Source of the DNA: a virus
IMG/VR virus record: IMGVR_UViG_3300022700_000179
Span: 1-64,000 of that record
Strand: one strand, 5' to 3'
DNA length: 64,000 nucleotides
In this document: in pieces, positions 2,849 to 54,086 of the stretch
Position numbering within the stretch: position 1 is the first letter of the stretch
How the letters are laid out: every line of letters begins with the position of its first letter
The notes under the pieces: model-generated
What the model was told of the DNA's origin: nothing
Seen by the model: only the letters and a program-made list of their open reading frames with translations
The model's database searches: none
Translations under genes and position numbers: made by a program

Positions 2849-3309
2849 TGATGCCTAAAGCACCAGATCAGATAAAGTTTCATGGGGCTCACTATATCCG
2901 TGCTGATATTTATTCTCCTAGTAAAGGCGATACGGAGATAAGTACGGATGGCCTGCTGGAAATTGACATGAGTTTGGACCCTGCTGATGTCGCCGGTCTA
3001 GCGTCACAATTGAGTGATATTAATGCTGCTTCTAAAAATGGTAGCAACATACCAGAATCTGTTGCGTACAAGTTAGCAACTGAGGCTAATGATGTACTTC
3101 AAGGGTTTGGTGTTGAGTCTCTTCCATCTAATCCTGGAGATATGGACACCCCTGCAATTTATGTGAACAGAGGCGATATGTACAACGGCACAATCGTGTG
3201 GGATTTTAATGATCAACTATTTTATCTAACAACGCCCGGCGACTGGCTTGCGGTCTGGGAGCAAAAACAAACTGAGGGGGGACAGCAAAGCGGACACACG
3301 TCGTATTAG
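2845..3309 (+). CDS. hypothetical protein with N-terminal shared tag motif
   Basis: PDQIKFHGAHYIRA; overlaps upstream stop. Confidence 0.75.
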   Translation: MMMPKAPDQIKFHGAHYIRADIYSPSKGDTEISTDGLLEIDMSLDPADVAGLASQLSDINAASKNGSNIPESVAYKLATEANDVLQGFGVESLPSNPGDMDTPAIYVNRGDMYNGTIVWDFNDQLFYLTTPGDWLAVWEQKQTEGGQQSGHTSY

Positions 3310-3320
3310 GAGGGAGGGTA

Positions 3321-3920
3321 ATGGATGTTTCTAGGGATCAATTGATGATACCGGATGGCAAGCAGGTACGTTTGCCTACCCCGCAAGACGCGCATCAAGG
3401 GACGACATACACAGACGATCGTTGGTCATTTACTATTGATAAGGACCAGGTTGTAGAAGTCACTGATCGTATGCATCGCGGGGATAATGCTGAGCCGATC
3501 GTGGCAGATCAGACAGGTTTCCTGTCTTTTGTGGCCAGAATAATGACAGCTGTGTACCCTTCTGATGTGGAAAGTCAGAAGCATTTTACCGTCGTTATAC
3601 AAGACGACCGTAAAGTAAACCAGACCTTCACGCAGCTTTTACAGCTATTGCGTAGAGACCACGATTCTTTGTATCGCCTTTTTCACTGTCTACTTTTGGG
3701 TTATGCTGCTTCCGACGGAATATCCGCGTACATGTCAGAAGTGCCAACTCGGTCACATGAGCAAATAATATCCAAATTTATGGAACGGTCGAACGAGTTT
3801 TTTGATTTTAGCGATATACACACATTCCTTTCTAGTTTCGATCTGGCAATAGATAGAATCGAAAAAGAGATCCGCCGGATGAGCGGAGAGGGGACTTTAT
3901 ATGTCGAAGTCGAGCAGTAA
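3321..3920 (+). CDS. hypothetical protein
   Basis: 199-aa ORF with strong RBS (GGAGGGAGG). Confidence 0.7.
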   Translation: MDVSRDQLMIPDGKQVRLPTPQDAHQGTTYTDDRWSFTIDKDQVVEVTDRMHRGDNAEPIVADQTGFLSFVARIMTAVYPSDVESQKHFTVVIQDDRKVNQTFTQLLQLLRRDHDSLYRLFHCLLLGYAASDGISAYMSEVPTRSHEQIISKFMERSNEFFDFSDIHTFLSSFDLAIDRIEKEIRRMSGEGTLYVEVEQ

Positions 3921-4248
3921 TCCTCCAAAAGCAATCCGATTTAACGGTGCCGTTTACCACTTGGCAGCGTTAGAAGATTTTGAATACACGACCGTACGTG
4001 ATCACACTTTAGTTGGTGAAGGTAGCCTTCTGTCGAGTACAATACATACTTTGCTTGAGCTTACTCAGGCGGTGGAAAAAGCTGGGGATGCTATGGAGAG
4101 TGAGGATTACGATGCCGCCGCACTTCAACTTTCTAGCAAAGAAGGCAATCCAGGTCCTGTTTTTACTAAACTACGGGCTACTATAAAGCATTTAATGGCG
4201 TTGGAACGTGCATCTAACGCCTTGCGAAGTATGAGCCAAAGAAAGTAG
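3901..4248 (+). CDS. hypothetical protein with N-terminal shared tag motif
   Basis: PKAIRFNGAVYHLA. Confidence 0.7.
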   Translation: MSKSSSNPPKAIRFNGAVYHLAALEDFEYTTVRDHTLVGEGSLLSSTIHTLLELTQAVEKAGDAMESEDYDAAALQLSSKEGNPGPVFTKLRATIKHLMALERASNALRSMSQRK

Positions 4249-4264
4249 TTAGGCGAGACTGCAA

Positions 4265-5656
4265 ATGTCTGCTGCTTACCAAGTGACAGTTACAGGGATA
4301 CACGATTACAAAGGTCGTGGCGTTATTCGTAAATCTGATCTGTGGCATTTTTCTCAGCAAGTTTGGGGTTCAGCAGGTGACAGCGTGCCTGCCGCGCTTG
4401 ACGCTATGGGGGATGCTTTCTTTTCTTACTATCCTAAAGCGGCAATCGCCCTTCCACGTGGCAATAGCGGTATCGTGATTGTAACTCCCAGTGCAGCGGG
4501 TAGATTAAAAGACTACGTTCGTGATCCGCACGCTTTGGACAGTGGCAGGTATTTTGTACAGAATGACTACGCGGTGATCTACGTTAAGGAACTGCCAGCG
4601 TTGTCTGGTGATTACCCAGATGATCTTTACCCGTCGGATCCTAACGCGTATGTAGACGCCTTAGACCAGAATTTGAGGACAGGTCCGGATTTTGAATCCA
4701 GGGTGGATTTCCCTTGTACTCTACATAAGCACCCGGCCAACTATGTAGAGTACAACGGGGCAGTGTACAAATTAGCTCGTAAAACCGTGATGTATCATGG
4801 TACCTCTACTGGTGAAGACGGTGAGATCCTTCGAAGTATCCTAAAGAATGGCCTTATCCCAGAGCCGCCTAAGCGGGCGTACGATTCTCTTTATGGCGAT
4901 GATAGCGTTGATGTCTCCGCTATTGATCCACATACCCGTTACGTCATTATGCTAGATGAGTCTTTTGGTGGTGTATACACTACTGAAAAAGTAGGGATGG
5001 CAGAAAAGTATGCTAAGAACGCGGTTTTGGAATTCGGTGGTAATCCATTGTTGGTATCTTCGCAAGTTGAAACTAGATCTCCAGGAGTTACTTTAGACGA
5101 AGACACATTGTTTGGTGCACCCCTCATTAGGTTTTTAGATAGTAGTATACCTGGTGATGCAGCTGAGCAGTTCATCGCGATTGACGACGGGGAAATAGAT
5201 TTTATAGCACTAGGTCGTTCCTTTCTGGAATATTATTTTCCAAAGCACGATTTTTCGAAGCAAGAACTAATATATGCTTTACCTTCATTTGCCAAGGCTA
5301 TAGAATCCAGGTTTATGGCAGAGTTACTTGGCGACCATATTGATGATATAGAGAAAAAGCTACTTGAGATGGATGAAGCAGTACTTGGTGGTGACCTAGA
5401 TCCTTCTGAGTATATTGACGAGTATAGACACTATGGTGCGGAAGCTTTGAAGAAACTGAGGTTTTTAACTTATAGTGACAGGACCGTTAGGTCCACGTCA
5501 GCTCCTATCAGTTACCGTGGCGCAAATAGAATACTCGCGGTGGTTTCGGCGGATAGCACTTCAGTTACTATCCATTACGCGTACGACATGCGCGAAGCGA
5601 AAAAACTGGCCATGGCTTTAGGGGCAAATTCAAAAGAAGCCAAGAAAGGCATATGA
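4265..5656 (+). CDS. two-domain protein; C-terminal ADP-ribosyltransferase-like domain preceded by internal tag motif
   Basis: PANYVEYNGAVYKLA then MYHGTS...ILKNGLIP...GVYTT...AEKYA, typical ART-fold motifs. Confidence 0.6.
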   Translation: MSAAYQVTVTGIHDYKGRGVIRKSDLWHFSQQVWGSAGDSVPAALDAMGDAFFSYYPKAAIALPRGNSGIVIVTPSAAGRLKDYVRDPHALDSGRYFVQNDYAVIYVKELPALSGDYPDDLYPSDPNAYVDALDQNLRTGPDFESRVDFPCTLHKHPANYVEYNGAVYKLARKTVMYHGTSTGEDGEILRSILKNGLIPEPPKRAYDSLYGDDSVDVSAIDPHTRYVIMLDESFGGVYTTEKVGMAEKYAKNAVLEFGGNPLLVSSQVETRSPGVTLDEDTLFGAPLIRFLDSSIPGDAAEQFIAIDDGEIDFIALGRSFLEYYFPKHDFSKQELIYALPSFAKAIESRFMAELLGDHIDDIEKKLLEMDEAVLGGDLDPSEYIDEYRHYGAEALKKLRFLTYSDRTVRSTSAPISYRGANRILAVVSADSTSVTIHYAYDMREAKKLAMALGANSKEAKKGI

Positions 5657-13755: not shown

Positions 13756-14126
13756 GGGCCCGAAATGGTTTCGACAGGGATGAATGAAGCTCTAGCTGCA
13801 ACCGGAGGATTCTAGGAACCTCCTCAAACTCCTAGAAAACAGAAACGCGAACGACAACAACGTTCCCATGGAGGTCGCTGAGGCGGCATAACTCCATCGT
13901 CCTGCTGGGAGCCCTGCCTATGGCATTCAGCGAGGGCGTCGTTAAAGTAGGCTAGCTTTCTGGGAATCTTGTAGCGGACGAAGAGAGCGAACACCTTTAG
14001 CTACTACGCCGATGCTAGGTCGTTACCCTACCTCGTGCAAAGGCGAAATGTCAGAAAGTGGTAACTATGGTTGTAGACGCTACAGTGGATCATTTCTGGA
14101 CCCCGGTTCGATTCCGGGCGGGTCCA
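13756..14126 (+). ncRNA. ssrA: tmRNA, tag peptide ANDNNVPMEVAEAA (13847-13891)
   Basis: 5' GGGCCCGAAATGGTTTCGAC, G3-U70 acceptor pair, 3' T-arm GGTTCGATTCC, resume codon GCG after AAAC, tag ending AA*. Confidence 0.93.
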
Positions 14127-14191
14127 ACTTCTTATAACGTTACACTTCCCTATACTGTAAACTACACGAGTACAACGACAAGAGGGTACTG

Positions 14192-18557: not shown

Positions 18558-18629
18558 TGTTGGTTTTATGTCTCTCGTTTAGAGAATCGTTTCTGTTGGT
18601 TTTATGTCTCTCGTTTAGAGAATCGTTTC
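18558..18629. repeat. exact 36-bp tandem duplication
   Basis: TGTTGGTTTTATGTCTCTCGTTTAGAGAATCGTTTC x2. Confidence 0.9.
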
Positions 18630-18756: not shown

Positions 18757-19242
18757 ATGGGTAAAAAAGACATAGTATTCAGTGTTACTAAGAAGGATCT
18801 GCAAATAGACTACTTTAGATGTGGTGGTAAGGGAGGTCAGAAAGTTAACAAGACCTCTTCTGGATGTCGCATTCGCCACGTTGCTTCTGGTGCGGTTGCC
18901 GAATCTAGAGAGGAGCGGTATCAGCATGCAAACAAAAAGATTGCGTTTAGGCGCCTGGTTGCATCCAAGGAATTTCAAAGTTGGGCGCGTATCCAGGCAG
19001 CGGCGATAGAACAGGGTTATCGAGATGTGGAGGAGAAGGTAGAGAAGTCGATGGCGCCTAATAATCTAAAAGTTGAGCATATAACCACTTATACTTGCGA
19101 CACTTGTGGGAGATCTGAAACTATCACGTCAGTAGATCCTTCTATTGCACCGGAATGGCTTGTGTATGATGGGGACGATCTGTTAAATGCCAATCGGTAT
19201 AGCTGTACTTCGTGTCTAGGTAGGGAGAAGGGGAATGAGTAA
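18757..19242 (+). CDS. class I release-factor-domain (GGQ) peptidyl-tRNA hydrolase-like protein (ArfB/PrfH-like)
   Basis: YFRCGGKGGQKVNKTSSGCRIRH...ERYQHANK. Confidence 0.85.
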   Translation: MGKKDIVFSVTKKDLQIDYFRCGGKGGQKVNKTSSGCRIRHVASGAVAESREERYQHANKKIAFRRLVASKEFQSWARIQAAAIEQGYRDVEEKVEKSMAPNNLKVEHITTYTCDTCGRSETITSVDPSIAPEWLVYDGDDLLNANRYSCTSCLGREKGNE

Positions 19243-20414: not shown

Positions 20415-21233
20415 ATGCGTCTAAAGTTATGTTTGCTGGTGTTTATATACTGTCTATTCTTTTCTTGTACCACCCCGACTTTTAATACGTGTCCAAAGGT
20501 TACTGTACGGAGTCCGCAGTGCCCATTTGGTAGGCCGGTCACAATTTATAAAAATGCCGAGCGTAAGATAGCTCCAATTTTAGTTACTCGTGAGCAGTAT
20601 ACGCTAGCCTATGATCCCGACAGCCGTGTACCTATTTGGGCTTGTGAAACAGTATCGTCCAACGAATTAGGTGGGTCTGCAGAACGTAAGAACAGTATTT
20701 CCTTAGATCCTTTAATTCCACGGAAATATCAGTCTGCGTCATCTGTATACACGAATTCTGGCTATGACCGGGGACATATGATTCCAGCAGCCAACCAGCG
20801 GTGGGATCAGGAATTATCGGACAAATTATTTTATGTAAGTAATATAGCCCCTATGCCAAGGAGCTTTAACCGAGGTGTCTGGCGCGTATTTGAGGGCTGG
20901 ATTAGGGGGTGGGCAAAAACCCACGAAGACGCATATGTAATTACAGGATCTTTCAACGTGGACGCTGATCCAGTGGTTATCAAGAAAGAGTTGGTTGTGC
21001 CGTCGCATTTCTACAAGATTCTGGTCTCTAAACGCGGGACCAAAGAGTATCATGCTATCGGGTTTTTATTTGATATTAAGTCGGAGTATAAGAGTCCATA
21101 TGATTGGGAAAATCAGGTTGTAGCAATTGATTTGATTGAAGTGATGGCGGGAATAGATTTAATGCCGAGTCTCTCTCCGTATAAGGAAACGGAACTTGAA
21201 CTCAAAGCAGCAAGGTTCGAGCTATGGCAATGA
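20415..21233 (+). CDS. exported DNA/RNA non-specific endonuclease (NucA/EndoG family)
   Basis: YDRGHM, SNIAPM, FNRGVW, VPSHFYK; N-terminal lipoprotein-like signal. Confidence 0.9.
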   Translation: MRLKLCLLVFIYCLFFSCTTPTFNTCPKVTVRSPQCPFGRPVTIYKNAERKIAPILVTREQYTLAYDPDSRVPIWACETVSSNELGGSAERKNSISLDPLIPRKYQSASSVYTNSGYDRGHMIPAANQRWDQELSDKLFYVSNIAPMPRSFNRGVWRVFEGWIRGWAKTHEDAYVITGSFNVDADPVVIKKELVVPSHFYKILVSKRGTKEYHAIGFLFDIKSEYKSPYDWENQVVAIDLIEVMAGIDLMPSLSPYKETELELKAARFELWQ

Positions 21234-25616: not shown

Positions 25617-25802
25617 CTCGAGCCTCCACTTGGCTTCGTAGGTGATATGGTGGGTTGGGCAGCAACCAATAACGCCCCTAACTTACTGTTGAGGGGACTG
25701 TGTCCGTAGAGTGGGTACGTCACTCCCTGCTCTTGACTTTGGCACCAAAGGCAGCACCTTGTAGTGGTGTACGGCAGAACTTAAAATAGGAGCAGCAACA
25801 GG

Positions 25803-27692
25803 ATGTCTACAAAGGTATATCGTTACGGACTGCTTGCACCTACCGAAAACGCTGATGTAGTTGCAGACCAGATACGGCACGCCCATAGCTACTATAACAA
25901 GCTGGTAGAGTTAGAGCGTAGGCGCCGGGATCAGATCCGTGGTATTATTGATACTGAAACCGGTGATGTCTTGGGGGCAGCTAAGCAGGCCGACGCGGAA
26001 CGTCAGTCTGCACGTAAAGCCTTAGCGCGCGAAAATGCAGAAAAGCGAAGTCGCAAAAAAGCTGACCCGAAGCTGCAGAAAGCTCTTAAGGATGCTAGTA
26101 AAAAGAGGAAGAAGGCGCTAGCAACTCTCAAGAAAGCCCGAAGCAAAGCTTTCAAGGAACACAAGGAAACAATCCGGTCCATCAATCAACGGCACGGCAA
26201 TCGTTTGCGTGAAGCGCGCAAAAATACTCCTACTTACTGGGGTACCTATACGATTGTGGAGGATGCTCTCAAAGCTTCTGCTAACGACAAGATGCTGTGG
26301 GATCGACGAGATTGGTTTTCACCTTCAGACCCTGAGTTCAAGCGGTGGAGGGGCGAAGGCCGTCTTTCTGTACAGGTCCAAAAAAGTCCACAGGATAAAA
26401 AGCCTGGGTTGGCGTCGGAGGCAGTCTTCCAAGAAAATAACCTTGTGTGGGTTGATCCAGTTGACGAGCGGGCGTGGTGTGATCCGGTACGTGGAGTACG
26501 TCGTCGGTTCAGTCGAACCAAGTTGCACTTTCGAATTGACTCTGACGAAAATAGGAAACCTGTTTGGACGGAGTTCCCGATGATTATGCACCGGCCTCTG
26601 CCTGAGGGTGGGCGGGTAAAGAGGGTAACGATCCATAAAAAACGTATCGGGACGCGGGTAGAGTGGTCCGCGCACTTCACGGTGAATACAGACGCCGTAA
26701 TTCCAGAGAGTCGTCCTGTCAGTGGCATGGTGGCTATTGATGTAGGATGGCGCAAGCTGGATAGCGGGGCCATTCGGGTAGCTGCTTGGGACGCTTCTGA
26801 TGGTAAGTCTGGTTACCTGGAAGTTTCGCCAGAGCTAATCAGTGCTCTGCAGTACAACAGGCAGTTACGTTCTATTCGGAACAATAATTTCAACGAGATC
26901 ATTTCTCAGTTGGTAGAGCACTTCAAGCATGCGCACGTGCCCAGCTGGCTATGCGAGGAGCTGGGTAGGAAAGAGAAACTAACGCCTGAGAAAGCCCGGG
27001 CGGTTCTAGCGCAGCTTCGATCTATGGATCGACTTGCATACCTGACTAGACGTTGGGCCGAGGAGGGAGTCACCGAAAAGCACGCTTATATGTACCAGCG
27101 GTTGGAGGAGTGGCGGTACCACGATTTTCATTTGTATAGTTGGGAATCAGACCAAGCAAAGAAATCTCAGCGGCGCCGTAAAGATCTGTACCGTAATTTT
27201 GCTGCGGAGTTGTCCCGCACATACGAAACATTGGTTCTAGAGGACTTTAAATTAGACCGGTTGGTACGGCGCAACGATGTCGGTGCTGAATCTGAAAACG
27301 AGACAGCTCGCGCAAACCGACATATGGTGGCGTTGTACGAACTGCGGGATAGTTTAATCAACGCTTTCAACCGTTGCGGTGCAGTAGTTATAGTTGACCC
27401 GAGGGATAGTACTCGTACATGCCATGTTTGTGGGGTGGTTAACGATTGGGACCAGGCTGCCGAGCTTGAACACAGGTGCGTAGCATGTGGTACTATTTGG
27501 GACCAAGACGACAACGCGGCTCTAATTTTGCGGCGTCGTGGTGCGGGGTTTGGGGGTGGCGACGGGGCCGGAACCGCTCGCGGGAGTAAAAGTGGTAACG
27601 ATTATACCAGGAAGGCGCCGAGAAAGCGGCCCTCCCGGAGCTACCAGGAGCTGCACCGCCGGCGCCGAGAGTCGGCCGCTCGCAGTTGGTAG
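25803..27692 (+). CDS. cas12m: compact type V CRISPR effector, Cas12m (V-M/V-U1)-like, RuvC triad apparently intact
   Basis: 629 aa; N-terminal coiled REC, YWGTY, WRGEGRLSVQ, MHRPLP, RuvC-I AIDVGWR, RuvC-II VLED, Zn CHVC/CVAC, RuvC-III DQDDNAA; array starts 38 bp downstream. Confidence 0.85.
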   Translation: MSTKVYRYGLLAPTENADVVADQIRHAHSYYNKLVELERRRRDQIRGIIDTETGDVLGAAKQADAERQSARKALARENAEKRSRKKADPKLQKALKDASKKRKKALATLKKARSKAFKEHKETIRSINQRHGNRLREARKNTPTYWGTYTIVEDALKASANDKMLWDRRDWFSPSDPEFKRWRGEGRLSVQVQKSPQDKKPGLASEAVFQENNLVWVDPVDERAWCDPVRGVRRRFSRTKLHFRIDSDENRKPVWTEFPMIMHRPLPEGGRVKRVTIHKKRIGTRVEWSAHFTVNTDAVIPESRPVSGMVAIDVGWRKLDSGAIRVAAWDASDGKSGYLEVSPELISALQYNRQLRSIRNNNFNEIISQLVEHFKHAHVPSWLCEELGRKEKLTPEKARAVLAQLRSMDRLAYLTRRWAEEGVTEKHAYMYQRLEEWRYHDFHLYSWESDQAKKSQRRRKDLYRNFAAELSRTYETLVLEDFKLDRLVRRNDVGAESENETARANRHMVALYELRDSLINAFNRCGAVVIVDPRDSTRTCHVCGVVNDWDQAAELEHRCVACGTIWDQDDNAALILRRRGAGFGGGDGAGTARGSKSGNDYTRKAPRKRPSRSYQELHRRRRESAARSW

Positions 27693-27730
27693 CACAGTTA
27701 GTCGTACTTACACTGTTTTTTGTGCCCGCT

Positions 27731-28397
27731 GTAACAACGCCTGCTCAACGGCGTAGAAGTTGAGACACGATAGCAAAACTATTTGAGCTTGTAATGGCTG
27801 GTAACAACGCCTGCTCAACGGCGTAGAAGTTGAGACACCTCTCGTCTGTTTGGGGTTTTTATCCCATACTATGTAACAACGCCTGCTCAACGGCGTATAA
27901 GTTGAGACTCTGTTCGGTCGTCGAGAGACAGGATGAAAGCGCGGTAACAATGCCTGCTCACCGGCGTAGAAGATGAGACCAGTCCATAAGCGGTTCGTCC
28001 CCCGTGTAGCGGCCGTAACAACGCCCGCTCAACGGCGTAGAAGTTGAGACCAGGTCAGCGAGCCGCTCATGCAATCCCACTGCAAGTAACAACGCCCGCT
28101 CAACGGCGTAGAAGTTGAGACTCTGTGCGTCCGATTCCGACCTGGTCGTGCTCTACACAACAACGCCCGCTCAACGGCGTATAAGTTGAGACGTATCGGA
28201 TCTGCGTGGCATAATCGATCAATAACGCCTGCTCAACGGCGTAGAAGTTGAGACTTTGTAGGTACCGATCCCCCAGATCCAAACCACATACAACAACGCC
28301 TGCTCAACGGCGTAGAAGTTGAGACTTTGCAGAGGGTCGTCGCCAAAGTGTACGCGGCCCTGCAACAACGCCTGCTCAATGGTGTATAAATTGAGAC
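27731..28397 (+). CRISPR. CRISPR array, 10 repeats of 36 bp (GTAACAACGCCTGCTCAACGGCGTAGAAGTTGAGAC), 9 spacers of 26-36 bp
   Basis: repeats at 27731, 27801, 27873, 27944, 28015, 28086, 28157, 28219, 28290, 28362; 3' hairpin CTCAAC/GTTGAG then AC. Confidence 0.97.
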
Positions 28398-28422: not shown

Positions 28423-28659
28423 GAAGTCGTACCAGTACAACGGTTTTTCAAGTTGTAACGCGAGTACGGACGGTGTTTGCACGTAATCATATGCTATGCT
28501 ATACTGGATTAGTACCTGCTCAATGGGGTATAAATTGAGACGCGTCGTACTGCACAGACTCAATCTTGCTCAGCAGTTTACAAGCTGAGATGCCTCTGTA
28601 GGAGACATCTTTTGTGCAGTTATGTACCAATACCAGCTCAGCGGTATTAGAGCTGAGAT
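28423..28659 (+). CRISPR. four divergent trailing repeats with compensated stems
   Basis: 28423-28459 TACAAC/GTTGTA; 28506-28541 CTCAAT/ATTGAG; 28556-28591 and 28624-28659 CTCAGC/GCTGAG. Confidence 0.65.
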
Positions 28660-28675
28660 GCCGGGGTCATCAATT

Positions 28676-29029
28676 ATGCGGGTAAAGGATGCTTATGACG
28701 TATGGAATTCGATAATAGAACGAATTCGCTCTTTGGAGGACGATTTACGTGAAACAGAGCGTGAACTCTCGCGTGTGTTGGAAGAAGAAACTGACGCGCG
28801 TGTCTCTTTAATTTCAGCCGCCGTTCACAATACCTACTGGCCCGACAAGGCTTTTGCGGAAGAGGTGGTACAATTGTCAGAGGTGCATTGGCCCGACGAA
28901 CTTGCTTCTATACGTGAAAATAGCCACATCGATACGCATGAAGTGAAACCCGAAGTTGGTCGTACCAGACGGAGGTCGTTTGATGGGCGCATTCCAGTAC
29001 CTCCTAGTCGACCGAGGAAAAAGACCTAG
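28676..29029 (+). CDS. hypothetical coiled-coil protein
   Basis: ORF 28622-29029; start moved downstream of the last divergent repeat. Confidence 0.55.
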   Translation: MRVKDAYDVWNSIIERIRSLEDDLRETERELSRVLEEETDARVSLISAAVHNTYWPDKAFAEEVVQLSEVHWPDELASIRENSHIDTHEVKPEVGRTRRRSFDGRIPVPPSRPRKKT

Positions 29030-29239: not shown

Positions 29240-29767
29240 TTGGCCAAATCTACCAGATCAGACATGGGAGTTCCTAAAAAGAAAAAGGAGTATGCTGAAG
29301 CACTCCGTCTTATACGTGAGGGATGGCCCCCACACGATATTGCTACAATGGTGGGTGTAGCCTACCGTACTGTATTGAAGTGGAGTAAAGACGTACCTCC
29401 CGAAGAACGTAAATACGAACGGCGGTATTACAAAGCAAAAGAGCTGCGGGAACAAGGTTGGAACAGAGGGCAGCTGGCCAGGTACTTTGGGGTTAACGTT
29501 CGGACCATTTCCAAGTGGTTAGGCGTTAGCAAAGTAAAAGGGGTACATTATCCAAGAGAATACCGTGAGGCAATCCGACTGTACACGGAAGAGGGTTGGA
29601 AGGTGGCAGATATTGCTGATAGTCTTTCTGTTTCTATTCCTACTGTTTACCGTTGGGTGCGTGATGTAAAAAGGGGGCCCTTTCCTCCATACCCAAGGAA
29701 GTCCGCCGTTTGCCAAAAAGAGAAAGAGCGGGAAAGTAAAAAATGGGAAGGATGGGATGATGTTTAG
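29240..29767 (+). CDS. protein with three tandem helix-turn-helix repeats
   Basis: repeated EGW..DIA..GV..RTV.KW units. Confidence 0.75.
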   Translation: MAKSTRSDMGVPKKKKEYAEALRLIREGWPPHDIATMVGVAYRTVLKWSKDVPPEERKYERRYYKAKELREQGWNRGQLARYFGVNVRTISKWLGVSKVKGVHYPREYREAIRLYTEEGWKVADIADSLSVSIPTVYRWVRDVKRGPFPPYPRKSAVCQKEKERESKKWEGWDDV

Positions 29768-29775
29768 AGGTTGTT

Positions 29776-30948
29776 ATGAGACAAGTAATCACTACAGGTA
29801 AAGTACCAATCAAGGCTTGGTTGGATGATATCGAAAATGGCGCGATGCAGCAGGCGAGCAATGCAGCAGATCTGCCCTTTGCTTTTAAGCACGTAGCCCT
29901 CATGCCGGATTGCCACCAGGGCTATGGTGTGCCTATTGGTTGTGTTTTGGCCACGCGTGGGGCAGTAGTGCCAAATGCAGTTGGTGTGGATATTGGGTGC
30001 GGTGTCGTAGCTTGCGACACGGGTATAATTGATATCTCCCAAGCTAAGCTAGAAAAGATTGTAGCAGATATCCGAAAAGTGATTCCGGTGGGTTTTTCCC
30101 ACCAAAAGGAAATGCAGTCGGTAGATGACATGCCGAAAGCAGCTTGTGTATCTGGCGCAGAGGCAATGCCTGTGGTATCCCAAGAATACAGGAGTACACG
30201 GAAACAACTGGGTACACTTGGTGGCGGCAACCACTTTATCGAGATTCAACGGGGCAACGGCACTATCTGGGTAATGATCCACTCCGGTTCCAGGAACCTC
30301 GGCAAGAAGGTTGCAGATCACTATAACAAACTGGCTTCCGATCTGAATTCAAAGTGGTACTCTTCGGTGACAAAGGAAAAACAATTAGCCTTTTTGCCTG
30401 TAAACACTATAAAAGCGCAGCAGTACCTTGCAGAGATGGGATACTGTCTCGAGTTTGCCAAGTGCAGTCGAGATTTAATGCTACGTTGCGTGTTGGGATG
30501 TGTGGGGGACGCAGTTGGTGATTTTTCACCAGAGCCGTCGGTCGACGTTCATCATAACTACGCTGCTCTTGAAAACCATTTTGGCCAGAATGTGTGGGTT
30601 CACCGTAAAGGTGCAACTCGCGCACGTACCGACGAGTTAGGAATTGTTCCCGGCAGTCAGGGCACGAAGAGTTATATTGTACGTGGTCTTGGCTGTAAGG
30701 ACAGCTTTGAGTCATGTTCGCACGGTGCCGGGCGCAAAATGAGTAGGAAAGCTGCGCAGCGCGAGCTTAGTCTCAAGCAGCAGCTCCAACTTCTGAAAGA
30801 CAGAAATGTGCTGCATTCAATTCGTAGCAATAAAGATTTGGACGAGGCTCCTGGCGCCTACAAAAACATCAGGGACGTTATGCAAAATCAGCAGGATTTA
30901 GTTGATATGGAAGTTAAACTTCATCCTCTTGCTGTGGTAAAAGGATGA
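29776..30948 (+). CDS. rtcB: RNA ligase RtcB
   Basis: MPDCHQGYG, GVDIGCG, GGGNHFIE, HSGSR, HHNY, HRKGAT, SHGAGR, DEAPGAYK. Confidence 0.96.
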   Translation: MRQVITTGKVPIKAWLDDIENGAMQQASNAADLPFAFKHVALMPDCHQGYGVPIGCVLATRGAVVPNAVGVDIGCGVVACDTGIIDISQAKLEKIVADIRKVIPVGFSHQKEMQSVDDMPKAACVSGAEAMPVVSQEYRSTRKQLGTLGGGNHFIEIQRGNGTIWVMIHSGSRNLGKKVADHYNKLASDLNSKWYSSVTKEKQLAFLPVNTIKAQQYLAEMGYCLEFAKCSRDLMLRCVLGCVGDAVGDFSPEPSVDVHHNYAALENHFGQNVWVHRKGATRARTDELGIVPGSQGTKSYIVRGLGCKDSFESCSHGAGRKMSRKAAQRELSLKQQLQLLKDRNVLHSIRSNKDLDEAPGAYKNIRDVMQNQQDLVDMEVKLHPLAVVKG

Positions 30949-32349: not shown

Positions 32350-32363
32350 GTAGTTCTTTTTGA

Positions 32364-32437
32364 TGGGAGCGACAGGAATCGAACCTGCTCTTCTGGGGAC
32401 CGTACTCCACAGTGTGCTGCCTTTACACCACGCTCCC
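32364..32437 (-). tRNA. tRNA-like gene with non-canonical 20-nt anticodon arm (identity unassignable)
   Basis: GGGAGCG/CGCTCCC-A, D-arm GTGT..GCAC, T-arm GCAGG-TTCGATT-CCTGT. Confidence 0.6.
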
Positions 32438-32441
32438 AGGT

Positions 32442-48798: not shown

Positions 48799-51291
48799 AT
48801 GCCTAAGTCTGGCAAGAAAGGTAGACAGCCTAGCATCGCTTCGTCGAGTAAGCCTAAGGCTAAGAAGAGAAAGCTAACGGAGTTCGGCTTTTCTCTCGGT
48901 GATAACGATGATGTTAAAATTGCAAAATCTAACCGTACACGTAAAGAGAGCAGCGGTTCTAAACCGAGAAAAGCAGATCAGGAAGAATACCGTAAGCTTG
49001 GGTCTGAGCTAGACAACCTGCTAAATGGTTCGGAGGATAAAACAAGTATTGATACGGTAGAGTCTGGGGGGCTTTTACCTATTCCTGATAAGGAAAATGA
49101 GTCCCCTGATCAAGACAGCAGTAAAAATAGTAGCAATAACGCCGTGTCAACTAACTATTTCGAGTTACTTGGGGATGTCGCTGATGAAGATGACTCAGAC
49201 GAGCTTCTGCCAGATGTAAAGGGCTTAGTTGAGCGCGCTATTTCTGCCGACCTAGACCCCTCCGTATTCTCCGGTTCCAGTTTTCCCGTTGCTTCTAATG
49301 TCATAGAGTTTTGTAGGGATCCAGACTTTTTAGGCTTTTCCGGAGATTTGTACCCACGGCAGGTAGAGATACTAGCGCATTATTTTAAAGATGTTTGCTA
49401 TTTTTGCAGTGACCTTGATTATATCCATAAGGTTCCCGTAAACGACCCAGTTGGCGACGTTTTAGACCGATTTGCACTTCTGCGCTTTGGCGTTTGCCCC
49501 AAATGTAAACGTAATCGGACGGAAATACTTTCTGACTGGATAAATGACCCAAGATTCGGAGAATACAACGATCTTGATCCTAACGTTGCTGCTAGCTTGC
49601 GCCCAGTACCTCCGAATGAGTTTGTTGGGGTGTGGGGACAGCGATCTGGCAAGAGTTATACCGTTGGTACGTTCGCTTTTCCCTATATCTTACATAGGTA
49701 TTTGGCTCTTCCCAATCCTACCAAATATTTTATGGTTCCATCGAATCAAGTACTAGAGGCCACATTTGTAGCCCCTACCCTGCATCAGATTACAAAATAT
49801 GTGTGGACGCCGTTCAGAGAAGCTTTTGCTGCTTCTCCTTGGTTTAAGGAAGTAAGGGAATCACTCCTTTCTGAGGGTAAACGATTAGGTACTACGCTTT
49901 ACCGTGAGGGAGAGCGCTTCATTATATTTCCTGCTAAAAATTTGGCCATTCACATACTAGCTGCGTCCAGTACCGGTCTACGTGGGGCAACGCGGCTGTT
50001 CTGTTCACTAGATGAGCTTGGTTGGTTTAACAGCGACGAGGATGGTAAGAAGCGTGCTGGAATCAAAGATGGGAATGCGGTCTTTGACGCCCTGGACAAC
50101 AGCCTTAATACCGTGCGTTCTCATGCAGACATACGGCGTGAGGACTTGCGTGATTACGACGTACTAGATGGGCATATGTTTAATATATCCAGTCCGTGTA
50201 CAGTTGGCGATCCAATTATGACCAGAGCTGCGCTCGCCCCCAGAGCGCCGAGGATGTTCTATACGCATTATGCCACGTGGGAAGTGAATCCTAAAGAAAA
50301 GGAAGAACGTATCAAAGAACGTATGGCCGGTGACATGGATCGGTTCATGCGGAACTGGGCGGCCATACCTCCACGTGCATTAAGTCCGTTTTTCTCTGAT
50401 TCTAATTTAGTGGCGAGCCTGTCAAGACCATCAGATAAGGATGAAGCACTATTCAACTATTATGTGGAAAATTATGAAATGGAGGGGGAGTCTATTATAA
50501 GGTTACGTCCGCACCTGGCGAATGTGCGCGCTGACCCATACGGTGCCCGGATTTTAGCCGTAGATAATGGTGAAGTGCAGAACTCTTTTGCTTTGTGTGT
50601 CGCAAAATATGACGCGACATTGGACAATTACTATTTTGAAGAGTTTGTAGAAGTGGCTCCGTACCGGGGCCATGTAGTGGATCTTAATTGGTGTTATGAG
50701 AATTTCATTGTTCCATTGGTTAACACTTTCAATTTTCTGCATGTGGCTTTTGACCGGTGGAATTCTTCGCATGCCTACCATGATCTTAAGACGAACCAGG
50801 GTTTCAATGCCACTACTGGAAAAGACGCGGAAATATACACGTTAAAGTGGCCAGATTTTGATGCATTCCGTGAGGATTTGCGAGGAATGCGCTTGTCGTT
50901 CCCGTCTACGGAAACAGTGCCAGATGAGTTACTTTCCATTAAAGATCTGTCGCGTAGGGCTGCAACCCCACGCGCACATATGCTATTGCAACTCACAACT
51001 GTAGAGCAATTTGGTCGAAAAGTGCTGAAACCTAATCAAGGGCAGGATGACCTTTTCCGGGTAGCCGTTTTAGCGCATCGATTCATGCGGAAGTACAAGA
51101 AGCTTTATGCAGAACACAGTATTTCCGCGCGACGTAGAGGCGACTTCCGTTCGGTTGCTATCTTCAGAGGAGCCAGTCGGCCCAATAGTGGCGGCTATAC
51201 TAGCGGCGGTCCTAAATCGGGCAGGTCTGTCGGTGTTACACGACAGCGTAGTGCGGCAATGCCCAGGAGATCGTCTGGAGGAAAATTGTGA
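48799..51291 (+). CDS. terL: terminase large subunit
   Basis: Walker A GQRSGKS, Walker B SLDELG, coupling ISS, nuclease LAVDNG...AFDRWNS...QDD. Confidence 0.88.
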   Translation: MPKSGKKGRQPSIASSSKPKAKKRKLTEFGFSLGDNDDVKIAKSNRTRKESSGSKPRKADQEEYRKLGSELDNLLNGSEDKTSIDTVESGGLLPIPDKENESPDQDSSKNSSNNAVSTNYFELLGDVADEDDSDELLPDVKGLVERAISADLDPSVFSGSSFPVASNVIEFCRDPDFLGFSGDLYPRQVEILAHYFKDVCYFCSDLDYIHKVPVNDPVGDVLDRFALLRFGVCPKCKRNRTEILSDWINDPRFGEYNDLDPNVAASLRPVPPNEFVGVWGQRSGKSYTVGTFAFPYILHRYLALPNPTKYFMVPSNQVLEATFVAPTLHQITKYVWTPFREAFAASPWFKEVRESLLSEGKRLGTTLYREGERFIIFPAKNLAIHILAASSTGLRGATRLFCSLDELGWFNSDEDGKKRAGIKDGNAVFDALDNSLNTVRSHADIRREDLRDYDVLDGHMFNISSPCTVGDPIMTRAALAPRAPRMFYTHYATWEVNPKEKEERIKERMAGDMDRFMRNWAAIPPRALSPFFSDSNLVASLSRPSDKDEALFNYYVENYEMEGESIIRLRPHLANVRADPYGARILAVDNGEVQNSFALCVAKYDATLDNYYFEEFVEVAPYRGHVVDLNWCYENFIVPLVNTFNFLHVAFDRWNSSHAYHDLKTNQGFNATTGKDAEIYTLKWPDFDAFREDLRGMRLSFPSTETVPDELLSIKDLSRRAATPRAHMLLQLTTVEQFGRKVLKPNQGQDDLFRVAVLAHRFMRKYKKLYAEHSISARRRGDFRSVAIFRGASRPNSGGYTSGGPKSGRSVGVTRQRSAAMPRRSSGGKL

Positions 51292-51746: not shown

Positions 51747-54086
51747 ATGTCTATGTTCCGAATTCGATATGATATGACCGAGGGTAGACGGCTGCGCCGA
51801 ATACAAAATCGACATGCCGGATTTATGCGATCACACAGTGGTTCGCCTAAATCGAAAATGCGTCATGGGGCGGCTATGACCAACCTGACAGCACCCATGC
51901 TGGCAGGAGGTGGATTACATCAGAGATACTCCCCAGTATGGGAACGTGCAGAGGATCCAACTCTAGCTGAAGATTTTCTGCCTGCCGATAGTCAAACTCA
52001 AAATAAAATATTTCGTAACTTAATAATGTTTGACGCCATTGCTGGACCAGCAACAGAGTATTGGAAAGATCTGGCGTTTTCACCGAATGTTATATTGAGC
52101 GGGCTGGATGATGATAAGGTACTGCAATTTTACCAAGATGCGTTAGCTGCTAGTGGCATCTTGCCTATGATGCCTTCTTTGCTTTCTGACTACCTTACGT
52201 TTGGTAAGTTTGTGTTTCACATGCTTATGGATGAGAGCAAAGGTTATTGGTATGAGACCATTCCACATGATCTAGATTATGTGAGTATCAAAGTATCCCC
52301 AATACCTAGTATGCCTCCATTAATTGATTACCAGCCTAGCGAGGACCAGCGTGAGTGGGCAACCAGTTCCGATAATCGAGTGGTGGAACAGCGGCGGGAT
52401 ATGGACCCGGTTTTGGTAAACCTTCTCGCGTCTGGGCAGCCGATTCCTTTGGCCCCTGAGAATACCATGTTCCTCCCTAGGATGGTATTTGCAAATGATT
52501 ACTACGGAACGTCTTATCTTACTCGTGTAATGCCTTTCAAGATATATGAGAAAGCTGTTTTAGACGCGTCCATTGCTGGAGCCCGTCGCCGGGCCGGGCC
52601 ACTTTGGCATATTACGGTATGGCCAGATGCATCAGACGATGAAATGTCTGAAATTTTAGATATGTTTTTTGCGGCGGAAGAAGACCCAATTGGGGGCAAG
52701 GTGGTGACCCGTGAAGGAGTTATAGTAAACTCATTAGGCGGAGGTTCTGGAGAATATTGGAAGCTTTCTGACGAGTGGTCTTTTTTATCAGAAGCAAAAA
52801 TGCGGGCGTTGGGAATTTCTGAAACGTTTCTTACAGGCGAAGCAAACTGGAACTCGATGGAGGTTATCCTATCGACGTTCCTCGAGAAGGTTCGTGCTGT
52901 ACGCAACTATTTCACTCAGAAAATTATTCTAGAGAAGATTATATACCAGTTAGCTCAGATGCATGATATCCGTCACCGTTCCGAGGCGGAGTTAGCCCAT
53001 CGTATCCGTACTGGTAAAAAGAGCCGGATTGATAGCCAGCCCGAGTTCAAGCTTCCATCCATTGAATGGGATAAGGCGCTTTCTCCAGTTGCAGATCAAG
53101 ATTATATGGCGATCCTGAACGAGTTGGAAGAGAAGGGATTACCAATTCCGATTCGGATGCGTGCTCAAGTGGCGGGGTTTGATATCGACAAAGCTATGAA
53201 TTCGTTTGAGTCCGATTTGGAGACGCACAAAGAAATATACGAGCATAAAGTTGCGCTTGCTGAACTCAAAAAGCAGTACGGCTTTGATGATTCAGGTCAG
53301 TACACTGGCGGAGGCGGGGAGCTAGGCGGTGGTTTAGGTGAGCTAGGAGGTGGGTTGGGTGAGGGACTTGGTGGACTTGGTGGGGGTGAACTGGGAGGTG
53401 GAGAACTTGGGGGTGGGGGCGAACTTGGTGGAGGTGAACTGGGAGGTGGGGGAGGAGTTGAAGAGGTACCCCCATCGGCACCAGAGGGTGGACTTGAAGG
53501 TTTTGGGGCAGGAACTGAGAAATCTAGATTCCCAGTTAAAAACCAGCACAAGAGGTTTGTTGGTAATACCAGACCACATGTGGTGAACAGCCTACTCGAT
53601 CGAATTGCTTCAGTTCCTATTTGGGACGATCGTAAAGAGCTTTTTGGATTGACGCAGCGTAAGATTGCTAAGATATTAGACCGAATTGATAAAAGTGCTC
53701 CAGATATAGACCACAGAAAACAGTTCGCCAGAAAAGTGTTTTCGAAGCTGAAGAGGAACGAGGGCTTAGATCGTAGGCAAGCACAGGTTGTGCAATATCT
53801 GGCATTTCGTTTGGGATTGGTACCCCCTGTCCCAATTCCAGAAGATGATTTTGAGCCTCTGAATAAGTACTTACTCGACAAGGTCCGTGAGGACGGATTG
53901 AGTAAAGAAATTACAAAAGAGCTGAACTACGTCTCCCGTATTTCAGAGGCATGTGGTAGGGAGCACCCGTATCAAATCAAACATTCGGATTTCAATCCTG
54001 TGCTCACTCGGTTTGACCGGGCCCTTTCCGATAAACAAATTCTCACGGGTCTTACAACCAGTGTTTCTCCTTTTATTAAAGGATAG
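51747..54086 (+). CDS. probable portal protein
   Basis: position after TerL; YGTSYL, ALGISETFLTGE portal-like motifs; Gly-rich linker. Confidence 0.65.
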   Translation: MSMFRIRYDMTEGRRLRRIQNRHAGFMRSHSGSPKSKMRHGAAMTNLTAPMLAGGGLHQRYSPVWERAEDPTLAEDFLPADSQTQNKIFRNLIMFDAIAGPATEYWKDLAFSPNVILSGLDDDKVLQFYQDALAASGILPMMPSLLSDYLTFGKFVFHMLMDESKGYWYETIPHDLDYVSIKVSPIPSMPPLIDYQPSEDQREWATSSDNRVVEQRRDMDPVLVNLLASGQPIPLAPENTMFLPRMVFANDYYGTSYLTRVMPFKIYEKAVLDASIAGARRRAGPLWHITVWPDASDDEMSEILDMFFAAEEDPIGGKVVTREGVIVNSLGGGSGEYWKLSDEWSFLSEAKMRALGISETFLTGEANWNSMEVILSTFLEKVRAVRNYFTQKIILEKIIYQLAQMHDIRHRSEAELAHRIRTGKKSRIDSQPEFKLPSIEWDKALSPVADQDYMAILNELEEKGLPIPIRMRAQVAGFDIDKAMNSFESDLETHKEIYEHKVALAELKKQYGFDDSGQYTGGGGELGGGLGELGGGLGEGLGGLGGGELGGGELGGGGELGGGELGGGGGVEEVPPSAPEGGLEGFGAGTEKSRFPVKNQHKRFVGNTRPHVVNSLLDRIASVPIWDDRKELFGLTQRKIAKILDRIDKSAPDIDHRKQFARKVFSKLKRNEGLDRRQAQVVQYLAFRLGLVPPVPIPEDDFEPLNKYLLDKVREDGLSKEITKELNYVSRISEACGREHPYQIKHSDFNPVLTRFDRALSDKQILTGLTTSVSPFIKG
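53306..53457 (+). repeat. coding low-complexity repeat (GGGEL)n
   Basis: GGGGELGGGLGELGGG... in the portal C-terminal region. Confidence 0.8.

Follow-up and report, generated by a model that had tools for sequence, protein, structure and literature searches.

The stretch analysed here, the first 64 kb of the 105,713-bp linear IMG/VR virus record IMGVR_UViG_3300022700_000179 (the window), carries a cas12m gene directly followed by a CRISPR array. The cas12m open reading frame (ORF; 25803-27692, + strand) is intact and encodes a protein of 629 aa, here called P0001, and a Shine-Dalgarno-like AGGAG (25789-25793, +), as read from the sequence, stands 9 nt before its ATG. Repeat finding placed ten 36-nt direct repeats, R1 to R10, with nine spacers between them at 27731-28397 on the + strand, the first repeat starting 38 nt after the cas12m stop codon. 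The first-pass annotation of this DNA had described a 629-aa RuvC and zinc-finger protein followed by a 36-nt-repeat array and no cas1, cas2 or cas4, and these elements held. Pfam profiles for Cas1, Cas2 and Cas4 (PF01867, PF09827 and PF01930) matched nothing in the 105.7-kb record, with positive controls; no adaptation module of the cas1/cas2 type was thus found within the record, which, at a completeness of 30% (CheckV), covers about that share of the phage genome and not the whole phage. The extent of the array from 27731 to 28397 was likewise reproduced, but its end was not, as three divergent repeat units follow at 28506-28659.

Family, fold and parts of the effector

The only Pfam family recognised in P0001 was PF07282 (Cas12f1-like_TNB, E 1.8e-9, residues 522-574). 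The PADLOC profile Cas12u1, which refers to V-U1, the former name of type V-M or Cas12m, matched residues 1-578 at E 1e-100, and the solved structure PDB 23vw matched residues 7-576 at E 1e-76. With a profile built from 38 homologues, 23vw was found at 1e-167, MmCas12m2 (8hio/8hhl) at 3e-90, GoCas12m (8pm4) at 3e-86 and UnCas12m4a (23vu) at 6e-77, while TnpB, Fanzor and Cas12f followed at 1e-12 or weaker. An AlphaFold2 model of P0001 reached a mean predicted local distance difference test (pLDDT) score of 88.9 and a predicted template-modelling (TM) score of 0.78, and Foldseek returned 8hhl, 8pm4, 8hio and 8hhm as its top matches (TM 0.62-0.76), of which 8hhl and 8pm4 were best (0.69-0.76), with Cas12f and TnpB at TM 0.42 or less on query length. 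By these matches the model agrees with the Cas12m fold, which combines a WED domain, a REC part of long helices that includes the “roof”, a RuvC domain interrupted by a helical insertion, and the TNB zinc ribbon. As judged from sequence profiles and the predicted fold, P0001 is a true Cas12m, that is, a type V-M effector, in agreement with the first-pass annotation, which had called it Cas12m-like.

The long helical, Arg/Lys-rich REC region (residues ~17-141; 25851-26225, +) is modelled as helices 17-52, 54-81, 89-119 and 121-141, with Lys and Arg making up 32% of residues 40-135. Its counterparts in 23vw, 8hio and 8pm4 align with it, and it corresponds to the REC “roof” described for Cas12m (PMC11013384). 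The TNB zinc ribbon, covered by the PF07282 match, is formed by two CxxC pairs, C540/C543 and C559/C562 (27420-27488, +), whose cysteines hardly vary across the alignment of the family. Beyond it, a basic C-terminal tail of ~50 aa (residues 580-629; 27540-27689, +) consists of a disordered Gly-rich stretch, with pLDDT below 50 at residues 586-610, and a basic helix predicted at 612-628. Many Cas12m of the clade with an Asp-Glu-Asp (D-E-D) RuvC triad, phage ones included (for instance P0002, P0007-P0012, L002, L011 and L012), have related tails beyond the TNB, with a G-x-A-R Gly-rich stretch and a basic helix, often with a [RK]W[AR][RK]AK motif and a NAAE ending; P0001 and P0002 have the variant KRPSRS[YF].ELHRRR, and HDD-type proteins have no such tail.

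The closest relatives of P0001, P0002-P0004, are 61%, 47% and 43% identical and all derive from metagenome assemblies. Two of the three sit on contigs of ~300 kb (at most 309 kb), which fits a lineage of large phages.

It could be argued that the gene is a TnpB of the IS200/IS605 type, or a recently domesticated copy of one, and that the repeats are unrelated to it. NCBIfam TnpB models do match P0001, albeit in its C-terminal part only: NF040570 reaches 5.8e-13 over residues 454-579, with 48.9 bits against a cut-off of 100. However, the full-length match is to Cas12m, and the length of 629 aa with Cas12m REC insertions differs from the ~400 aa of TnpB. Furthermore, none of the eight neighbouring ORFs scanned encodes a TnpA-type transposase, and directly 3' of the gene lies a multi-repeat array, with at least ten repeats and a family-specific pseudoknot, in place of an omega-RNA, so that the locus lacks the marks of a TnpB/OMEGA system. 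We rejected a TnpB identity and hold this explanation to be vanishingly improbable.

The array and its repeat

Repeats start 62-72 nt apart, and the spacers measure 34-36 nt except S7 with 26 nt. R1 and R2 are identical, as are R5 and R6, whereas R7 to R10 become increasingly variant toward the 3' end, a polarity that fits a leader at the gene-proximal end. This leader would comprise the 38-nt gap between the stop codon and R1 (27693-27730, +). A weak promoter-like TTGGTA-17-TACACT at 27686-27714 falls below the threshold of the promoter scan and may or may not act as such; in promoter and terminator scans of the region, the counts did not exceed those of shuffled sequence.

An H-type pseudoknot is possible in the repeat, with positions 7-11 paired to 20-24 and positions 14-19 to 29-34. 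We compared it in an ungapped alignment of 22 different 36-nt repeats, taken from arrays beside Cas12m relatives in IMG/VR and on GTDB contigs. Across these 22 repeat families, 88% of the cells were compatible with pairing, against 34-43% in controls slid by 1-3 columns, and 10 of the 11 pairs showed changes on both sides; the covariation score was 0.736, compared with at most 0.21 in slid controls, and none of 500 shuffles reached it. Counted from the spacer, the second helix pairs -23..-18 with -8..-3, and the crRNA (CRISPR RNA) pseudoknots of MmCas12m2 (PMC10442227) and PmCas12m (bioRxiv 10.64898/2026.03.26.714355) agree with it within one position. The handle lies at the 3' end of the repeat in + orientation, as expected of a Cas12 crRNA. 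The repeat thus has the shape of a Cas12m repeat, as first proposed. A covariance model built from the 22 repeats, which include R1 of the window and so make matches of the array partly a matter of construction, detected all ten repeats at E 3e-6 to 1e-3 and on the + strand only.

Outside the array, no complement to the repeat of 12 nt or longer was found in silico in the 105.7-kb record. The absence of an anti-repeat accords with a system that works without a trans-activating crRNA (tracrRNA), and the claim that the system is tracr-free stood in this respect. Rfam holds no family for the repeat, and the same repeat was found nowhere else in IMG/VR, in GTDB species genomes or in metagenomes of the Joint Genome Institute (JGI), which leaves the suggestion that the phage relies on the adaptation machinery of its host without support. 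A degenerate pattern retrieved one related array, L080 (positions 1-330 of JADDYB010002630.1), located at a contig end and without an effector on the contig; the 36-nt repeat there shares the pseudoknot architecture and resembles ours in its 3' half (GCTCAATGGC...ATTGAGAC), and the effector gene would lie beyond the contig end.

The D-E-D triad

The three RuvC residues of P0001 are D313 in RuvC-I (AIDVG; codon 26739-26741, +), E480 in RuvC-II (VLEDF; 27240-27242, +) and D569 in RuvC-III (DQDDNA; 27507-27509, +). In MmCas12m2 the aligned positions are His317, Asp485 and Asp579, which have been published as its RuvC residues (PMC10442227), and D313 also aligns with the D of 23vw, so that the motifs read as canonical in the first pass do occupy the catalytic positions of solved Cas12m. 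Their presence had been considered noteworthy on the grounds that known Cas12m are degenerate in RuvC, a premise that is outdated. Cas12m has been divided by its triad into four clades, of which clades 3 and 4 are mostly D-E-D (PMC10442227), and among the known types (HEK/HQK, HDD, DED/NED, DND) the triad of P0001 is the D-E-D type of clades 3/4. In a profile search of 1.84 billion cluster representatives (50% identity clusters), which gave 3,016 proteins at E<=1e-30, D-E-D was the triad of 129 among the best 151 family representatives. A tree of 98 relatives placed P0001 together with P0002-P0004, which are likewise D-E-D, within a clade dominated by this triad; losses to NED, NDD, HDD, DDD and DKD are scattered among array-bearing lineages. 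On this evidence, D-E-D is the ancestral, default state of the clade rather than a special retention, and an intact triad in a phage Cas12m is therefore not evidence of nuclease activity. The repeated replacement of the triad in lineages that keep an array implies, in turn, that catalysis is dispensable for the system.

Biochemical work on orthologues points in the same direction. Eight have been assayed, four with D-E-D, two with H-D-D and two with N-D-D triads, and none cleaved double-stranded DNA (dsDNA), while six of the eight showed binding dependent on a protospacer adjacent motif (PAM; PMC11013384). Purified Ms and Go Cas12m exhibited neither target nor collateral cleavage, and processing of precursor crRNA (pre-crRNA) was independent of RuvC (PMC11013384). 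Interference was also observed with D-E-D, H-D-D and N-D-D orthologues (PMC11013384). Moreover, reversion of the HDD triad of MmCas12m2 to DED did not restore cutting (PMC10442227). By analogy with these proteins, RNA-guided DNA binding, that is, silencing, is the most likely activity of P0001, and cleavage is unlikely. P0001 would suit, no less than other members, for testing why a family that does not cut retains D-E-D under selection. As a compact and tracr-free DNA binder, it could also serve as an orthologue for CRISPR interference or base-editor scaffolds.

Proposed mechanism, targets and competing explanations

We read the locus as a minimal type V-M module on a large phage, made up of Cas12m and its own array without adaptation genes, which probably binds DNA without cutting it; our estimate for this reading is a probability of roughly 0.78. 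The present data show the family, the fold, the aligned triad, the structure of the repeat with its covariation, the orientation, the lack of an anti-repeat and the phage context, and crRNA processing, PAM dependence and binding without cleavage are carried over from characterised orthologues. In our model, gene and array would be transcribed together from the + strand, and each 36-nt repeat would fold into the Cas12m pseudoknot handle. Cas12m would bind this handle and, as its orthologues do, trim the precursor to crRNAs of ~50-60 nt with a guide of ~17-20 nt, presumably without need of a tracrRNA. The complex would then find dsDNA that carries a 5' PAM and matches the guide, form a stable R-loop and stay bound, and in this way may block transcription or replication of the target while leaving the DNA uncut. 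A rival phage or plasmid is the probable target, and a gene of the host a possible one.

Spacer searches for targets, which had been proposed as a check, returned none. BLAST of the ten spacers against their own 105.7-kb record found only the spacers themselves. The whole array had no match among INPHARED phages, a single chance match among PLSDB plasmids (E 0.7), and matches at chance level in 43 IMG/VR records, 42 with Cas12m relatives and one found via its terminase (best E 0.012 per genome). Exact 22-nt spacer prefixes had no match in IMG/VR (S1, S3, S5, S6 and S9) or in GTDB genomes (S4 and S9), although such zero-mismatch scans constitute a weak negative. Five spacers have a GC content of 57-66%, compared with 46.7% for the phage, which hints at foreign, GC-richer targets.

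Several points weigh against binding without cutting by a working module. First, 85% of the close representatives of the family retain D-E-D, which means that selection maintains these residues for some purpose. Second, P0001 is only ~37-38% identical to the nearest described proteins. Third, DNA hydrolysis by the D-E-D clades, by a two-metal mechanism, was explicitly left open (PMC10442227). Fourth, since the protospacer search found none, neither a target nor a PAM can be named. Finally, the degenerate trailer of the array, together with the absence of adaptation genes from the record, means that the spacer set may be old.

The first three of these points bear on the possibility raised in the first-pass annotation, that P0001 is a cleavage-competent, tracr-free miniature nuclease, which by virtue of its intact triad would destroy competitors or host DNA. 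D313, E480 and D569 do stand at the catalytic positions, the conservation of the triad among the best representatives implies a selection that is still without explanation, two-metal hydrolysis was speculated upon in print, and at ~37% identity P0001 is distant from any characterised orthologue. On the other hand, the four D-E-D orthologues assayed did not cleave dsDNA, purified Ms and Go proteins lacked target and collateral cleavage as well (PMC11013384), MmCas12m2 with its D-E-D restored still did not cut (PMC10442227), and array-bearing relatives often lose the triad, so that the system can do without it. Moreover, 23vw, the nearest D-E-D relative with a solved structure, was deposited as a “DNA-binding protein”, an attribution known from its deposited name only. 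We therefore consider a nuclease the less likely reading, and an unlikely one.

The last two points might instead indicate an inactive relic, that is, an old, horizontally acquired cassette that has lost its function. Besides the degenerate trailer repeats and the missing adaptation genes, no targets were detected, and IMG/VR, GTDB and the JGI metagenomes yielded no second record with the repeat. Such decay is difficult to reconcile with an intact frame of 629 codons that retains the conserved residues listed for its closest relatives, with a good Shine-Dalgarno sequence, with identical leader-proximal repeats, and with divergent repeats that keep their fold. Furthermore, the cas12m gene and array have a GC content of 50-57% in a record of 46.7%, slightly above the neighbouring genes; a cassette so little raised is not obviously a recent arrival, which suggests long residence. 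A relic seems to us very unlikely.

Divergent repeat units past the array

Three further repeat units, R11 to R13, lie beyond R10. R11 (28506-28541, +) differs from R10 at one base in its 3' 27 nt, its 5' part being replaced; it is 96% identical to R10 over 28 nt, keeps 10 of the 11 pairs and is found by the covariance model at E 0.046. R12 (28556-28591, +) has 15 differences from R1, including three double compensatory ones, and also keeps 10 of the 11 pairs, a retention with P ~0.003 under random changes; the family covariance model did not report it at E<=10. R13 (28624-28659, +), with 12 differences from R1 and again three double compensatory ones, keeps all 11 pairs (permutation P ~6e-4; covariance model E 0.017). 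R13 and R11 are the best matches of the model in the window outside R1 to R10, the next standing at E 0.7. Both R12 and R13 end in GAT, while C36 is nearly invariant across the repeat families. Between R10 and R11, a decayed repeat remnant (28435-28459, +), recognised by eye only and in the register of a 71-nt period, keeps GTA-CAACG and AAGTTG-AAC but has lost its middle, and this remnant and R11 to R13 are all in register with the array period. Directly before R11, and ending at its start, stands a promoter-like TTTGCA-18-TATACT (28476-28505, +) with TG before the second hexamer and 9 of 12 positions matched; since promoter-like sites in this region are no commoner than in shuffled sequence, we regard it as a lead and not as a finding.

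R13 runs into, or right up to, the start of the ORF that follows, which encodes an orphan protein and has in-frame ATGs at 28622, 28658 and 28676. This arrangement raises the possibility that R11 to R13 are working Cas12m handles that stand behind a promoter of their own and run into the next gene. They might place a Cas12m handle on the mRNA of the ORF at 28622/28676-29029, or yield fixed, non-canonical guides, and the phage would thus control gene expression alongside, or in place of, an attack on foreign DNA. The retention of 10 and 11 pairs in R12 and R13 despite 15 and 12 differences, the rank of R13 and R11 among model matches outside the array, the position of R13 at the start codons and a promoter-like site that ends exactly where R11 begins would all accord with such a role. 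However, there are only three units, contiguous with the array trailer and fitting its period, and the promoter match is at chance level. Neither further copies of the units nor solitary repeats occur beyond chance in the 105.7 kb, and the guides that follow R11 to R13, searched for partial self-targets of the CreR kind, match nothing else in the record. The simplest reading is that R11 to R13 are an old array trailer whose handles are still kept in shape by selection, and we regard working handles, and gene control by them, as unlikely. If true, the phage Cas12m would be a weapon with ordinary guides and at the same time a marker or controller of at least one of its own mRNAs, representing a CRISPR effector repurposed for viral gene regulation.

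Phage carriage and relation to known systems

The record is a phage fragment, with a gene for a large terminase at 48799-51291 (E 4e-93) and one for a portal protein at 51747-54086 (E 2e-85), and the effector is accordingly phage-encoded, as had been stated. Furthermore, it encodes a transfer-messenger RNA (tmRNA; 13756-14129, Rfam 154 bits) with the unusual tag ANDNNVPMEVAEAA, and between 7651 and 22382 a set of tRNA genes, 12 by Rfam and 13 by ARAGORN. Terminase, portal, tmRNA and many tRNAs together are the profile of a large or “huge” phage. A search with the large terminase for related phages returned only one 5.5-kb contig, at 73% identity.

Carriage of Cas12m by a phage is not new and only mildly special. 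“Type V-U variants” without adaptation genes were reported from huge phages in 2020 (PMC7162821), and IMG/VR contained 49 distinct loci that encode Cas12m relatives, ~40 of them with a repeat array, which in most cases lies directly downstream of the gene. Among 42 such IMG/VR records, 19 were at least 90% complete and 11 had direct terminal repeats. Modules of Cas12m plus array are hence common in viral records, including 11 on genomes with terminal repeats. At L002, L008, L017, L018, L020, L025, L033, L042, L045 and L048, the module has two separate arrays, or the gene is flanked by arrays on either side, so that the arrangement of the module is more varied than a gene followed by an array. 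A claim of novelty fails whether it rests on D-E-D, on possible cleavage or on phage carriage; the locus is a moderately divergent phage-borne member of an already large Cas12m family.

A close parallel is MvCas12m of the myxophage MV-1, presented as the first phage Cas12m in a September 2026 preprint (bioRxiv 10.64898/2026.09.14.751636). Like P0001, it is phage-borne and D-E-D, is adjacent to an array of 36-nt repeats without cas1, cas2, cas4 or tracrRNA, and has no identifiable spacer targets. The two proteins are, however, only 37% identical and belong to different subclades, and their repeats differ in sequence while sharing the same fold. MV-1 is moreover described as temperate and is represented here by a 40.7-kb contig, whereas our window comes from a far larger phage that encodes a tmRNA and numerous tRNAs and of which it is only a fragment. 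We apparently recovered the MV-1 locus as L056 (JADZFZ010000476.1), with the gene at 3001-4833, a protein of 610 aa in which E463 and D555 agree with the preprint, and an array from 4864 with 9 repeats and hence 8 spacers; its RuvC-I residue was counted as D300, against D305 in the preprint.

Among solved structures, 23vw (“CRISPR-associated DNA-binding protein Cas12m”) is the closest relative, collinear with P0001 over residues 7-576 and with D, E and D in the same columns; it lacks the extra ~50-aa basic C-terminal tail of P0001, and its activity is known from the deposited name alone. The characterised type V-M effectors MmCas12m2 (8hhl/8hio) and GoCas12m (8pm4) (PMC10442227, PMC11013384) resemble P0001 in fold (TM 0.69-0.76), domain order, pseudoknot handle and single-crRNA guide, but have an H-D-D RuvC, derive from bacteria (Mycolicibacterium and Gordonia), and are ~19-23% identical to it in structural alignment. 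The D-E-D orthologues of Bigelyte et al. 2024, for example MsCas12m, share with P0001 a D-E-D triad within a Cas12m scaffold; they are bacterial, do not depend on RuvC for the processing of pre-crRNA, and leave the PAM-flanked dsDNA that they bind uncut (PMC11013384). The CRISPR systems of huge phages described by Al-Shayeb et al. 2020 (PMC7162821) are alike in that they occur in large phages with translation-related genes, have compact arrays without Cas1, Cas2 or Cas4, and mostly keep the catalytic residues of their effectors, although that study does not single out V-U1/Cas12m. Cas-Phi, which is among the systems described there, is a genuine nuclease and belongs to another branch of Cas12 (profile E ~1e-4 here).

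Genomic neighbourhood

The genes next to cas12m encode a radical-SAM-like protein, an aldolase-like protein, a helix-turn-helix (HTH) protein and the RNA ligase RtcB (29776-30948), and no neighbour gene was found in common between this and other Cas12m loci. Downstream of the array, the orphan protein of ~118-135 aa (28622-29029) is followed by a multi-HTH DNA-binding protein (29240-29767). This gene order recalls acr-aca pairs, without homology evidence, and neither gene is conserved beside other Cas12m loci.

Further away, a 597-aa protein at 40372-42165 matches the PHROG “RNA-binding protein” family phrog_850 (E 3e-36), and the additional presence of RtcB in the record points to a set of genes for RNA repair. 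Two genes upstream of the CRISPR module encode, at 18757-19242, a protein with an RF-1 domain, of the peptidyl-tRNA hydrolase or release-factor-like kind (E 2e-19), and, at 20415-21233, a non-specific endonuclease of the DNA/RNA type (PF01223, E 3e-41). An aberrant tRNA-like gene on the - strand (32362-32438) was reported by both Rfam and ARAGORN. Lastly, between tRNA genes at 18558-18629, a 36-bp unit unrelated to the CRISPR repeat occurs as a perfect tandem duplication of 2.0 copies without a spacer.

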